From Gammaproteobacteria bacterium (lineage in GTDB: Bacteria; Pseudomonadota; Gammaproteobacteria; GCA-001735895), in the NCBI GenBank assembly GCA_024232855.1, contig JAAEPH010000056.1:1-61023 (forward strand): a stretch of DNA of 61,023 nt, given 5' to 3'. Within the stretch, counting starts at the first letter, position 1, and each line of letters opens with the position of its first letter. Under the pieces are notes generated by a model, which ran no database searches, was not told the DNA's origin, and saw only the letters and a list, made by a program, of their open reading frames with translations. Positions 4,766 through 60,891 of the stretch are shown one piece after another. The position numbers and the translations under genes are program-made.

Positions 4766-5692
4766 CTATCTTGCTGTATTCATTAATCTTTTTGCCTTCA
4801 ATTCACCGTCCGCGGCGACTTCCCCAAGGCCTATGAAGACGCCCTCTTCGGAGCTCAGCCGACACAGTCCGGAGACCTTGCAAACACCCGCGTCTACCCG
4901 TTTTCCACGACGTATATCGAGACTGTCGGATACATTCAGTACGACTTCCGGAAAATCCGCCAGGGCCGCGCCGACGGGTAGCAACAACTGCTCGAGCCGA
5001 TCCCCCCCCGGCTGTTGCCGCAGGCTTTGCAAATGCTCCATCGTCACCGCGTCACAATCATCAAACGCGCCGACGCGGGAACGATGCAAGGCGGCGAGAT
5101 GCGCACCGCAACCGAGCTGTTTACCAATGTCTTCGGCGAGGGTGCGAATGTAGGTGCCCTTGGAGCAGGACACGTCGATCTCCATGTTTTCATCATCGAA
5201 CCACAACAGCTCCAGTCGAAAAATTTCGATGCGCCGCGGCTCGCGTTCCACCTGCTTGCCCTCGCGCGCCAGTTGATAAAGGCGTTTTCCCTGGTGTTTG
5301 AGGGCCGAGTACATCGGCGGGATCTGATCGATCTCACCGACAAAGCGCGGCAGTAACTCCTCGACCTGGCCGGCGTCGACACAAACCGCCGCCGTTTTGA
5401 CCACTCCACCTTCGGCATCGCCGGTAGTCGTCGTCTGTCCAAGCCGACAAACCGCGCGATAGGATTTGTCAGCGCCTAGCAGATAGCTGGAAAACTTGGT
5501 GGCCTCACCCAGGCATATCGGTAACACGCCGGTTGCAAGTGGATCGAGGCTGCCGCAATGGCCCGCCTTACGCGCGTTGAACAGTTTGCGCACCCGTTGC
5601 AGGGCCTGGTTGGAACTGACACCAATCGGTTTATCCAGAATCAGGATGCCATCGACGTCGCGGTAGCCCCTGGGCTTGCCCCTAGCCCGCAT
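4766..5692 (-). CDS. truB: tRNA pseudouridine(55) synthase; current ATG lies inside a MITE end
   Basis: GILILDKP, KAGHCGSLDPLATGVL, CSKGTYIRTLA; conserved synteny. Confidence 0.97.
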   Translation of the reverse strand: MRARGKPRGYRDVDGILILDKPIGVSSNQALQRVRKLFNARKAGHCGSLDPLATGVLPICLGEATKFSSYLLGADKSYRAVCRLGQTTTTGDAEGGVVKTAAVCVDAGQVEELLPRFVGEIDQIPPMYSALKHQGKRLYQLAREGKQVEREPRRIEIFRLELLWFDDENMEIDVSCSKGTYIRTLAEDIGKQLGCGAHLAALHRSRVGAFDDCDAVTMEHLQSLRQQPGGDRLEQLLLPVGAALADFPEVVLNVSDSLDIRRGKRVDAGVCKVSGLCRLSSEEGVFIGLGEVAADGELKAKRLMNTAR

Positions 5693-5789
5693 ATCTCACC
5701 GTTTTACGTCGCGAGGGCGTCACAAAGACACTGTGGCACGCCGCAGGGAGCAGTTGCCGAGCAGGAAATCGGTGAGATATGCGAGCTAG
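5682..5789. mobile_element. MITE family A, copy 1 (100 bp plus CTAG duplication)
   Basis: CTAG-CCCGCATATCTCACCG...CGGTGAGATATGCGAG-CTAG; first 29 bp identical to the copy at 50503. Confidence 0.85.
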
Positions 5790-5795
5790 CTCCCA

Positions 5796-6164
5796 TTACT
5801 GGCCGGCTTTGTCCCTGTCGCTGGCCAGCGCCGAGTCGATCAGGTCCGATAGCTGGCGCCCGCGAATATCGGTGTCATCGTAGATAAAGGTAAGCTTCGG
5901 CGTGACTCGGGCCTTGAGGCTCTTGCCGATTTCGCGCTGCAGAAAGCCGCTGGCCCGGGTCAGGGCCGCCAGGCAATCCGCGGCGTCCTGCGGATCCAGC
6001 ACGCTGAAAAAGACACGCGCGTAGGCGAGGTCCTTGCTCACCTGGACTTCCAGTATGCTCGGAGCCGACAGGCCGGGGTCCTTCAGTTCACTTCGAACAA
6101 GGCTTGCCAGTTCACGCTGAATCTGGGAAGCAATCCGTTCGCTGCGCGAGTATTCTTTCGGCAT
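5796..6164 (-). CDS. rbfA: Ribosome-binding factor A
   Basis: RSERIASQIQREL...VSKDLAYARVF...PKLTFIYD; synteny. Confidence 0.98.
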   Translation of the reverse strand: MPKEYSRSERIASQIQRELASLVRSELKDPGLSAPSILEVQVSKDLAYARVFFSVLDPQDAADCLAALTRASGFLQREIGKSLKARVTPKLTFIYDDTDIRGRQLSDLIDSALASDRDKAGQ

Positions 6165-41570: not shown

Positions 41571-41588
41571 ATCCTGCCTGTATGCGGG

Positions 41589-41836
41589 CTAACCCGCACA
41601 TCTCACCGATTTCCTGCTGCGGACGCTTCCTTGGAGGGGTTCTCGCAGAGGCGCGGAGAGCGCAGGGCGCGCGGAGGGTATTTTGCAGGGTGTGTGCCTG
41701 GGCATCTCTGACGCAGACTTCGATAACTTCTTTATCCCCCGCCCCCCCGGCGCTCACTGCGCTCTCCGCGTCTCTGCGAGAACCTTTACTGAAGTAGTCC
41801 CGCGTCGTGGACCTGCTGGTGACAAATGCGGGCTAG
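41589..41836. mobile_element. MITE (family A-type ends) carrying an intact inverted REP pair; empty intron target
   Basis: CTAA-CCCGCACATCTCACC...GGTGACAAATGCGGG-CTAG; 28-bp inverted arms at 41638-41665 and 41757-41784 (one mismatch). Confidence 0.8.
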
Positions 41837-49465: not shown

Positions 49466-50506
49466 ATGAATAAATTGACCATCATCAAACCCGACGACTG
49501 GCATCTGCACTTACGCGACTCGCCGTACCTGGAAGCGGTCGTGCGCGACAGCGCTCGCCAGTTCGGGCGTGCGATCATCATGCCCAATCTGAATCCACCG
49601 GTACGCAGCTGTGCCGATGCGATGGCCTATCGCAAACGTATCATGGCCGCGCTCGCCGACGAAAGTGACTTCGAGCCGCTGATGACCCTGTACCTGACGG
49701 ATAACACCAGTGTCGAGGATATCCGCGCCGCCAGCAAATCCACCAGCATACACGGCGCCAAACTTTACCCCGCGGGCGCAACCACGAACTCCGATGCCGG
49801 GGTTACCGACCTGGCGAAACTCGCGCCCGTGTTCGAGGCGATGCAAGACTCCGGGCTGATGCTGCAGGTGCACGGTGAATCGACCGCGAGCGATGTGGAC
49901 GTATTCGATCGAGAGAAGGTCTTTATCGATAAAAGCCTGCAGCGTATTCGTGCGGACTACCCCGAACTACGCATCGTTTTTGAACATATCACGACGAAGG
50001 AAGCGGTCGACTTCGTGCGCGCCGGCGATGTTAATCTCGCTGCCACGATCACGCCCCATCACCTTTTGATCAATCGCAACGCGATTTTCCAGGGCGGCAT
50101 TCGGCCGCATCATTACTGCCTGCCGATCGTCAAACGCGAGCATCACCGACGCGCCCTGGTGGAGGCGGCTGTCAGCGGCGAGACGCGTTTCTTCAGTGGC
50201 ACCGACAGTGCGCCGCACAGCCGCGTCGCCAAGCAATCCGCCTGCGGCTGCGCCGGTATTTACTCGGCCCACAGCGCGCTCGAACTCTATGCCGAGGCCT
50301 TCGATGAACTCGGTGACTTTACCCATTTCGAATCCTTCGTGAGTCTCAATGGCGCCCATTTTTACCGGCTACCGCCAAACCGGGATTCGGTAACGCTACA
50401 GCGGCTTCAGTGGACTGTTCCGGACTCCTTGCCCTACCCCGAATCCTGCTTGATCCCGTTCCGCGCCGGGGAGACATTAAACTGGAAACTCATCCACGAT
50501 GACTAA
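49466..50506 (+). CDS. pyrC: Dihydroorotase (type II)
   Basis: PDDWHLHLRD, KLYPAGATTNS, GTDSAPH. Confidence 0.99.
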   Translation: MNKLTIIKPDDWHLHLRDSPYLEAVVRDSARQFGRAIIMPNLNPPVRSCADAMAYRKRIMAALADESDFEPLMTLYLTDNTSVEDIRAASKSTSIHGAKLYPAGATTNSDAGVTDLAKLAPVFEAMQDSGLMLQVHGESTASDVDVFDREKVFIDKSLQRIRADYPELRIVFEHITTKEAVDFVRAGDVNLAATITPHHLLINRNAIFQGGIRPHHYCLPIVKREHHRRALVEAAVSGETRFFSGTDSAPHSRVAKQSACGCAGIYSAHSALELYAEAFDELGDFTHFESFVSLNGAHFYRLPPNRDSVTLQRLQWTVPDSLPYPESCLIPFRAGETLNWKLIHDD

Positions 50507-50609
50507 CCCGCATATCTCACCGTTTTACGTCGCGATATGCACATGGATATGCAGTAGTAGAGCAATGCAGGAGCAATTGCCGAGGAAATCGGTGAGATAT
50601 GCGGGCTAA
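50503..50609. mobile_element. MITE family A, copy 2 (99 bp plus CTAA duplication)
   Basis: CTAA-CCCGCATATCTCACCG...CGGTGAGATATGCGGG-CTAA; perfect 16-bp terminal inverted repeats. Confidence 0.88.
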
Positions 50610-51213
50610 TATAACCCCGATGTCGCAGCGGTTTCGCGGCTACCTGCCCGTCGTCGTCGATGTCGAGACCGGCGGATTCAACGAAGCCACCGATGCATTG
50701 TTGCAGGTCGCCGCGGTGCTGATCGACATCGATGAACAGGGGCAGTTTTACTGCTGCGACACCGTTTCCTGCCACGTAACGCCGTTTGCCGGCGCCAACC
50801 TCGACCCGAAATCGATGGAAGTGAATGGCATCGATGTCGATCACCCCTTCCGCCTCGCAGTCGATGAAAAGCAGGCATTGCCAAAAATTTTCAAACCGGT
50901 TCGTGAAGCGATCAAGCAGCACGCCTGCAACAAGGCGATCCTGGTCGGGCACAATGCGCACTTCGATCTCAAGTTCATCAACGCGGCGGCCGCCAGGACC
51001 GGCATAAAGCGCAATCCGTTTCACCCCTTCAGTACCTTTGACACGGTAACCCTGGCGGGCCTGGCCTACGGCCAGACGGTGCTCGCGCGCTCGATAAAAT
51101 CGGCCGGTATGGAATGGGATCCAGAGGAGGCGCATTCGGCGATCTACGATGCCGAAATGACGGCAATGCTGTTTTGCAAGATCGTCAACGAAATCGGATT
51201 TGTGCAGCCCTAG
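50599..51213 (+). CDS. rnt: Ribonuclease T
   Basis: [31 protein letters not shown] (DEDDh). Confidence 0.98.
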
Positions 51214-60835: not shown

Positions 60836-60891
60836 CCCCGCATTTCTCACCACCGGATCGACGGCGCGGGACTACTCAATAAAGGTTCTCG
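60832..60891. mobile_element. End of a MITE/REP composite forming the intron 3' exon
   Basis: Reverse complement closely matches 41777-41836; starts at the CTAG containing the nucleotidase stop. Confidence 0.8.

Follow-up and report, generated by a model that had tools for sequence, protein, structure and literature searches.

A transposable element in the first codons of truB appears to supply a replacement start codon, an arrangement repeated at other genes of the same gammaproteobacterial genome

The locus described here lies in a stretch of 61,023 nucleotides (the window, that is, the whole stretch of DNA that was analysed) on contig JAAEPH010000056.1 of the Gammaproteobacteria bacterium assembly GCA_024232855.1, a metagenome-assembled genome (MAG). 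The minus strand of the window carries infB, rbfA, truB, rpsO and pnp; infB, rpsO and pnp were named from the translations of open reading frames (ORFs), and RbfA and TruB by homology. A transposable element of the miniature inverted-repeat class (MITE) is inserted in the first codons of truB, and the start codon from which truB can now be read lies in the terminal repeat of that element. The coding sequence (CDS) of rbfA (5796..6164, minus strand, 122 aa) was taken from the ORF list, and an RbfA 61-80% identical to it adjoins truB in 23 same-genus loci. Its stop codon TAA (5796-5798) shares bases with the old, ancestral start codon of truB (ATG, 5794..5796, minus strand), giving TAATG, as assigned from the sequence, the ORF list and the junctions of relatives.

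The MITE is 102 bp long (5685..5786, minus strand) and was delimited from its inverted repeats and its genome-wide copies. The distal arm of the terminal inverted repeat (5769..5786, minus strand) has one mismatch to the truB-proximal arm (5685..5702, minus strand), which becomes a G-U pair in the mRNA; taken as 24 nt including flanks, the arms (5682-5705 and 5766-5789) are 92% complementary. On both sides stands a duplicated TA, recognized by comparing flanks across copies, with the truB-distal copy at 5787..5788 and the proximal copy at 5683..5684, the T of the latter being base 3 of the new codon 3 and its A base 1 of codon 4. The insertion created a leader ORF of 30 codons (5704..5796, minus strand), which consists of the old ATG, 2.3 old codons and element sequence and ends with TAA at 5704-5706, 11 nt ahead of the new ATG. 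The proximal arm holds GGTGA (5696-5700), an in-frame TGA (5696-5698) and the new ATG (5690-5692), and this end reads GGTGA-GAT-ATG-CGG-GC/TA-GG, where the slash marks the border of the element. An original prediction made from the window alone had placed a MITE in codons 3-4 of truB, with an insertion of 104 bp, a 30-aa peptide running from the old ATG at 5796 to 5704, and an in-frame ATG at the element end yielding the N-terminus MRARGK; the sequence and the ORF list agree with all of this, the 104 bp being the 102-bp element plus one TA.

As now read, the truB CDS (4766..5692, minus strand) encodes 308 aa beginning MRARGK and is the sole copy in the genome. Its ATG sits within ...GGTGAGATATGCGGGC/TA with an in-frame TGA two codons upstream, so that the repeat ATG is the first possible truB start. 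The product gives a full-length TruB match without frameshift or stop, residues 13-219 corresponding to positions 1-208 of the 210 in TIGR00431 (264.8 bits, cut-off 151.45), and precomputed domains of homologues of this TruB include PF01509, PF09157 and PF16198. No canonical start lies between the repeat ATG and the conserved TruB domain, where the model begins at residue 13. The next canonical start, a GTG at codon 34, was considered and rejected because its use would delete the region matching the first ~20 positions of the TruB model. When the element and one TA are removed in silico, the junction becomes TAATG-GGA-GCT-AGG-GGC-AAG (MGARGK). As read from these letters, the insertion at truB recreates the frame and changes residues 2-3 only (MGARGK to MRARGK). 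It is probable that TruB is now translated from the repeat ATG, and we put this at roughly 0.75.

A comparison of rbfA-truB junctions in relatives, the check that had been suggested for an empty site, found the TAATG overlap together with a same-length MG.RGK N-terminus. truB was present in 41 of 41 genomes searched and RbfA stood directly upstream in all 30 loci examined; the stop/start overlap T[AG]ATG occurred in 15 of 23 same-genus junctions, counted by eye, and the nearest of these have an N-terminus of identical length (e.g., MGKRGRSRDYRDVDG and MGNRGKSRNYREVDG). Among the 13 closest TruB proteins in a large protein database (92%-71% identity), 11 start with MG (MGVRGK, MGFRGK, MGSRGK, etc.) and none with MR, and the 92%-identical protein begins MGVRGK. 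L071 and L073, two loci from metagenomes with 82% and 77% identity over a 150-residue N-terminal query, each read cagTAATGGGC (TAATGGGC). A contig in a sister sample (run X2), from an organism whose DNA differs by ~13%, passes from window position 5675 to 5792 and lacks the element. Neither an empty nor a filled site of the same species was recovered among the species representatives of the genus (TruB identity <=72%) or in the metagenome scan (<=82% with the 150-residue query). By the comparison with relatives, the insertion is therefore lineage-specific and younger than the split from the 92%-identical relative.

The possibility that assembly misplaced a repeat between rbfA and truB has to be considered, given that the MAG consists of 550 contigs, many of which end in this repeat, and that none of the contigs from the probable source run (X1) spans the element: they run into it from either side and end there. 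Against such an artefact stand the syntenic rbfA and truB flanks, the exact TA duplication at a CTAG, the 0-1 differences with which the source-run contigs enter the element from both sides while none of them joins across an empty site, and the identical architecture at a dozen other loci. We regard this explanation as hardly credible.

Three other loci show unusual rbfA-truB junctions or truB starts. In L032 (genome G005) and the metagenome locus L072, truB begins ATGCAGGCTA..., which exactly matches a variant of the repeat end followed by TA. In L032 the motif directly follows the rbfA stop and could be the fossil of a deleted element; in L072 the sequence upstream does not resemble rbfA, and the protein (MQANRGKS) has one residue more than that of a relative (MGNRGKS). 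These two loci look like independent hits on the truB start. At L042 (genome G013), a 299-nt spacer with long inverted repeats of other sequence lies exactly between the rbfA stop and the truB start, and is apparently a MITE-like element unrelated to the present one.

The element at truB belongs to a large family. The repeat core occurs 7 times in the window, compared with 0.58 expected and with 0 of 100 shuffles reaching 7. In the genome (4.15 Mb, 550 contigs), a 115-nt query matched 103 times, and a search with the 14-nt core gave 267 hits and 56 paired copies. TA flanks 257 of 316 repeat ends genome-wide. The tetranucleotides to the left and right of a copy are often unlike (e.g., TTAG...CTAG), whereas TA is invariant, and hence the duplication is TA and the repeat begins RCC-CGCAT (in full, RCC-CGCATATCTCACC). 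The original prediction had taken CTAG as the duplicated unit when reconstructing the empty site; the MGARGK reading stood, and CTAG was rejected as the duplicated target, since its outer bases vary between the two sides of an element and the TA within it (5683-5684 and 5787-5788) does not. Of 257 ends, 177 have G and 69 have A as the base outside TA, in a palindromic pattern, and by this count the target is YTAR, mostly CTAG. CTAG is scarce in this genome (2,236 sites in 4.15 Mb, versus 6,473 TTAA and 139,776 TA), and a sizeable fraction of all CTAG sites must therefore be junctions made by this family.

The family has the features of MITEs, being short (~100-330 bp), non-coding, TA-flanked and multi-copy, with empty sites in relatives at truB, lpxD, folA, rnt and hemD; the 102-bp truB copy has no room for a transposase ORF. 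This copy is an internal-deletion derivative of ~225-bp copies, differs by ~7% or more from the nearest family copies, and is oriented opposite to those at rnt, lpxD, folA, rluC and hemD, which indicates that either end of the element can face a gene. Of the 61 genomes of the genus, 25 contain the 18-nt repeat end (<=1 mismatch), with 149 occurrences in this genome, 92 in G022 and 35 in G005, and a reversed control pattern gave 0 in all 61. The TA target with its 2-bp duplication and the preference for CTAG are those of IS630/Tc1-mariner elements. No autonomous parent insertion sequence (IS) was found in the MAG, where IS copies may be unassembled; three DDE_3 transposase fragments (on contigs C178, C10 and C211) are not flanked by this repeat, and long repeat pairs in the genome enclose ordinary genes. 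For lack of an autonomous copy and of the repeat beside the DDE_3 fragments, the label is kept to IS630-like rather than IS630 member, and the element is best described as a putative non-autonomous cut-and-paste transposon of IS630/Tc1-mariner type. A search in and beside the element found no sigma-70-like promoter and no terminator-like site, and a search of the element region against Rfam gave no family at E <= 1.

Because a single insertion restores the frame by chance in one case out of three, the whole family was tested for selection. The test set comprised the 257 TA-flanked repeat ends of the same genome, the ORFs of >=100 aa running outward from them, and NCBIfam families at E <= 1e-6. 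Such outward ORFs numbered 40 in the frame of the repeat ATG, 33 in frame +1 and 1 in frame +2, the last frame being nearly empty on account of the TAG formed by TA plus G. A family was assigned to 29 of the 40 ATG-frame ORFs versus 9 of the 33 in frame +1. The N-terminus of the family lay <=10 codons from the element end in about 17 ATG-frame ORFs, compared with one in frame +1 (RapA, which has its own Met at residue 6), or also YjeF by one of two models (offset 0 or 15 by model, own Met at 15). Each of the 9 family genes in frame +1 has a start of its own farther downstream, offset by 0-15 (YjeF), 6, 14, 44, 46, 59, 62 and 63 codons, and no gene interrupted in this non-restoring frame was found among the 33 ORFs of >=100 aa. 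For ~14 ATG-frame cases, moving to the next possible start would remove part of the conserved N-terminus; LpxD, an ABC-2 permease, RluC, DHFR, UbiX, HemD, XdhB, GpmI, an OmpR-type regulator and PilW are among them. The ORFs with family matches showed no insertion in mid-gene.

The old start codons tell the same story from the other side of the element. Of the 257 flanks, 11 have an ATG at 7 nt before the element and 8 at 10 nt (1-3 of the latter being abutting repeats rather than gene starts), compared with 4, 3, 4, 2 and 3 cases at 6, 8, 9, 11 and 12 nt. An in-phase old start (ATG, GTG or TTG at 7 or 10 nt) was linked to a repeat-ATG ORF of >=100 aa in 12 of 34 cases, and an out-of-phase one in 0 of 45.

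The 12 linked cases include single-copy lpxD, folA, ispE, hemD and rnt. The left junctions of rescued genes, read from the old start codon to the element border (slash), are ATGacTA/ at folA, rnt and the gene of a PQQ-system binding protein, ATGagtctTA/ at lpxD, ATGatTA/ at an ABC-2 permease gene and mpaA, GTGgccttTA/ at hemD and TGATGgcggcTA/ at ispE. When empty sites were predicted and compared with orthologues from the five closest genomes, all four genes tried gave a match: LpxD (predicted MSLSLQQLA; orthologues MSLSLKQLA and MSLNLQQLA), DHFR, encoded by folA (MTNISLIV; orthologue MTHLSLIV), RNase T, encoded by rnt (orthologue MTEFTPMAERFRG) and HemD (GTG-AFRLQGQV; orthologue GTG-TCHLQGQV). 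lpxD, like truB, is single copy in this 97%-complete genome, and is normally an essential gene. Read from the repeat ATG, the proteins would begin MRVSLQQL (LpxD), MRTNISL (DHFR), MRARLQGQ (HemD), MRANITPM (RNase T) and MQARLQLP (IspE). The rnt case lies in the window itself (50499..51213, plus strand; TIGR01298, 314.9 bits), where a MITE of 101 bp (50506-50606) with TA at 50504-05 and 50607-08 sits in codons 2-3; the old ATG occupies 50499-50501, a 204-aa ORF starts with the repeat ATG at 50599, and orthologues read MTEFTPMAERF.... The full truB-like arrangement recurs at ispE (G000 C480:3941-4190, locus L245), whose identity was confirmed by an equivalog model: the stop of the upstream gene and the old ATG share bases (TGATG), an element of 241 bp comes after codon 3, reading from the repeat ATG yields MQARLQLPSPAKLNL, and the TA on the right has decayed to TC. 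No fewer than 12-15 conserved genes, including the normally essential lpxD, folA, ispE and hemD, thus appear to begin at a start supplied by the transposon, and by these counts the restoring arrangement is far wider than the truB locus alone. In a separate case on the minus strand at G000 C525:19210, an 835-aa ORF starts at the repeat ATG (MRTSGIFWVLK...), with an in-phase GTG 7 nt before the element; its first 220 residues have no NCBIfam match, and the product looks like a membrane protein.

It may be argued that this pattern reflects a transposase preference for sites near starts and in one phase of CTAG, and not survival, in which case it would be uninformative about use of the ATG. The target is indeed strong, with only 2,236 CTAG sites available, codon usage may favour xCT-AGx, and 4 of the 11 sites with ATG at 7 nt read ATGACTA, a hint of a wider target motif. 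A transposase, however, cannot sense the reading frame; the phase permitted in frame +1 yielded no interrupted gene among 33 long ORFs, and the interrupted genes are conserved and intact downstream, with no mid-gene insertions among family-matched ORFs. Site preference as the whole explanation is therefore very improbable. The genes in question are ones that the cell cannot lose, and their first-codon insertions seem to survive solely in the phase in which the repeat ATG restores the frame, which is hard to explain unless that ATG works as a start.

Both ends of the element, read outward, carry ...GGTGA-GAT-ATG-CGG-GC/TA, with a Shine-Dalgarno (SD)-like GGTGA 3 nt before the ATG, and the frame of this ATG places the duplicated TA at codon positions 3 and 1. 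GGTGA matches the 3' part of the extended SD consensus; the 3' end of 16S rRNA was not found in the MAG, so that the match rests on the general consensus and not on the anti-SD of the host. In the sense of the mRNA, the element is predicted to fold at -54.5 kcal/mol (z = -4.9), a value that none of 200 shuffles reached, and the same fold is predicted in a 171-nt context. The predicted repeat stem of 20 bp (duplex -35.3 kcal/mol) pairs SD and AUG completely, and freeing them would cost +24.4 kcal/mol, so that unassisted initiation is unlikely. A hairpin-forming element over the initiation site, as had been suggested, is thus borne out by the predicted fold, which buries SD and AUG.

Several considerations tell against translation of TruB from the repeat ATG. 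The gap of only 3 nt between GGTGA and ATG is short for an SD sequence, although it presumably equates to about 6 nt from the GGAGG core, on the alignment that we assume. The hairpin begins 7-10 nt after the old ATG and would hinder initiation there too, unless ribosomes come from the upstream gene (as possible at truB and ispE) or load on nascent RNA. The assembly is a MAG in 550 contigs, and contigs of the source run end within the element. No sequencing run recorded as RNA contains the locus. Replication in other genomes is modest, with an old ATG at 7 nt in ~17 and at 10 nt in ~20 cases versus 8-15 per out-of-phase distance, and at 7 nt in 6 of 18 rows from G022 (both hand counts among the matches listed). 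Within genes, CTAG is possible only as xCT-AGx, which restores the frame, or CTA-Gxx, which gives frame +1, and codon usage could favour the former, which may inflate the raw phase bias through site availability; the absence of frame +1 interruptions nonetheless stands in these data. Finally, TruB is dispensable in Escherichia coli, so that truB alone could have been silenced recently, with its ORF undecayed.

The last point leads to an alternative in which truB has been inactivated or strongly down-regulated, the in-frame ATG being a one-in-three accident of a recent insertion into a gene whose ORF has not yet decayed. Besides the dispensability of TruB, the youth of the insertion, which no closer relative carries (the 92%-identical protein reads MGVRGK), and the burial of SD and AUG in a strong predicted hairpin speak for it. 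Genes that cannot be silent, namely lpxD (single copy), folA, ispE and hemD, have the same arrangement, however; non-restoring insertions number 0 versus 12-15 restoring ones; the model match of TruB is full-length, with no frameshift or stop; and the copy, at ~7% or more from the nearest family members, is hence not brand new. We consider a silent truB improbable. The idea of the original prediction that the terminal repeat acts as a portable SD plus ATG is strengthened by the frame-controlled genome-wide pattern and by the four further empty sites that match orthologues, and neutralization of the insertion by in-frame restart is likewise favoured by the frame-specific pattern across the family; reinitiation from the leader is a refinement added here.

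If TruB is made from the repeat ATG, the buried start has to become accessible, and a relay through the leader ORF is the likeliest route, for which we would give slightly less than an even chance. The transposon would have landed in codons 3-4 of truB, at a TA lying within CTAG, the repeat ATG restoring the frame. Ribosomes that end rbfA would restart at the overlapping old ATG (TAATG, which lacks an SD of its own), translation of the 30-codon leader through the element would melt the stem, the leader would terminate at the TAA 11 nt before the new ATG, and reinitiation would occur at the repeat ATG, aided by GGTGA. The layout for reinitiation is present at truB in the form of a leader with its own start, a stop 11 nt before the ATG and an SD-like GGTGA. 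The repeat also has built-in stops, TGA (-3) for frame 0 and TAG/TAA (+11) for frame +2, and in every paired case examined the leader ORF ends between -41 and +16 nt from the repeat ATG; at rescued genes, depending on element length, the end is at -3 (TGA in GGTGAG), at +11 (TAG/TAA via the duplicated TA) or at -38 to -41.

The repeat ATG may also be the TruB start and be exposed otherwise, by RNase III cleavage of the stem, by initiation on the nascent transcript or by ribosome standby. The repeat stem is long and near-perfect (20 bp, -35.3 kcal/mol), and stems of Correia elements in Neisseria are RNase III substrates. Moreover, the old ATG is itself hindered, at 7-10 nt from the stem base, and several rescued genes have no overlap with an upstream gene to supply ribosomes. 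These routes nevertheless seem rather unlikely, considering that in all paired cases the frame from the old start closes within -41 to +16 nt of the new ATG, as a restart device needs, that truB and ispE retain the stop/start overlap that would feed ribosomes into the leader, and that relief of hairpin barriers by short ORFs is documented at integron attI/attC sites in the accessible part of the literature (PMC8876359).

Other copies in the window and along the contigs add to the picture of the family. A third window copy of 243 bp (41592-41834, within the region 41582-41836) has TA on both sides and lies between a minus-strand membrane-protein gene and a plus-strand gene for a PduO-type adenosyltransferase, whose own Met is 39 codons downstream in frame +1. 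A solitary ATGCGGGCTA directly to its left looks like the leftover of another repeat end. Repeat cores also lie ~35-290 nt from many contig ends, including one at 60839-60852 near the end of the window's contig, which makes this family, or else its parent IS, one of the main causes of breaks in the assembly of the MAG.

MITEs are usually viewed as intergenic passengers or gene disruptors. This genome presents the opposite at scale, and the frame-specific survival argues that the start works. Tentatively, and with less assurance than for the start codon itself, we suggest that the terminal repeat may have been shaped into a portable translational restart cassette, with stops that close incoming frames (TGA at -3, TAG/TAA at +11 and an internal TAA in ends of the truB type), a GGTGA resembling an SD and an ATG in phase with the TA, which could let the element colonise first-codon CTAG sites of essential genes without killing the host. 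About 1 in 6 complete copies sit at first-codon sites. Such sites would then serve as a refuge, since imprecise loss of an element there would be lethal in essential genes, and the genes hit would become leader-peptide-coupled, hairpin-gated cistrons under a new translational control. If the use of the transposon-supplied starts is borne out, it shows a way for a transposon to render insertions in coding sequence harmless, accounts for the odd MRA, MRV and MQA N-termini in annotations of the clade, and calls for caution from gene callers and pseudogene callers at such junctions. It would also offer a natural counterpart to engineered bicistronic translation-initiation designs and open to test the way in which ribosomes deal with a stem of -35 kcal/mol that covers a start site.

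In the open-access literature (supplements aside), no MITE family was found described as systematically replacing start codons. Synthetic bicistronic designs use a short leader ORF that ends by the gene start. A natural parallel is provided by ORF-11 and ORF-17 of integron attI1 and the short ORFs in attC, where a leader with its own start ends next to the real gene start and termination-reinitiation supplies ribosomes and relieves hairpin barriers, according to the accessible text of that work (PMC8876359). As far as these sources go, integron leaders are fixed and bicistronic designs are engineered, whereas here the leader arises anew at each landing of the transposon in first codons. IS630 and ISY100 of the Tc1-mariner superfamily and their MITEs move by cut-and-paste, with short terminal repeats, a TA target and a 2-bp TA duplication (PMC2170065), and a preference of IS630 for CTAG is stated in the title of Tenzen and Ohtsubo 1991 in the reference list of that paper. 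A start-codon-donating repeat is not described in the accessible portion of that source, and a transposase with the present repeat was not found here.

Several other repeats touch on translation starts. A review, so far as its accessible portion goes, mentions MITEs fused to the 5' or 3' ends of ORFs, and boxC is able to supply the start codon of short, unvalidated ORFs (PMC3184786 and PMC3049150, respectively). In the same portion of the review (PMC3184786), Neisseria REP2 carries a promoter, ribosome-binding site and ATG and lies upstream of 14 genes; it differs from the present family in lacking terminal repeats and in not lying inside coding sequence. The review treats Correia elements as modulators of transcription or at the RNA level and not as replacement start codons; these are hairpin-forming, TA-flanked MITEs with promoters and IHF sites, and they are transcribed together with genes. 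Rickettsia palindromic elements and other in-frame repeats are similarly tolerated in genes since the frame is kept; unlike the present element, which is excluded from the protein and changes 2-3 N-terminal residues, they are translated within it (PMC3184786).

The closest precedent is MITEAba12 of Acinetobacter, for which start codons were noted at element termini and, in three records, the initial four residues of the adjoining CDS (MQQS) could come from the repeat (PMC6382973). It shares with the present family outward terminal-repeat nucleotides able to start a neighbouring CDS. Its terminal repeat and parent IS differ from those here, and the report, in its accessible text, is anecdotal and based on prediction ('data not shown'), with no frame-controlled statistics, no reconstructed empty sites of housekeeping genes and no SD/stop/ATG layout. 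Compared with the open-access literature as far as it was accessible, the repeated replacement of starts in housekeeping genes, the frame-specific survival signature and the stop/SD/ATG layout with its leader ORF are apparently new.

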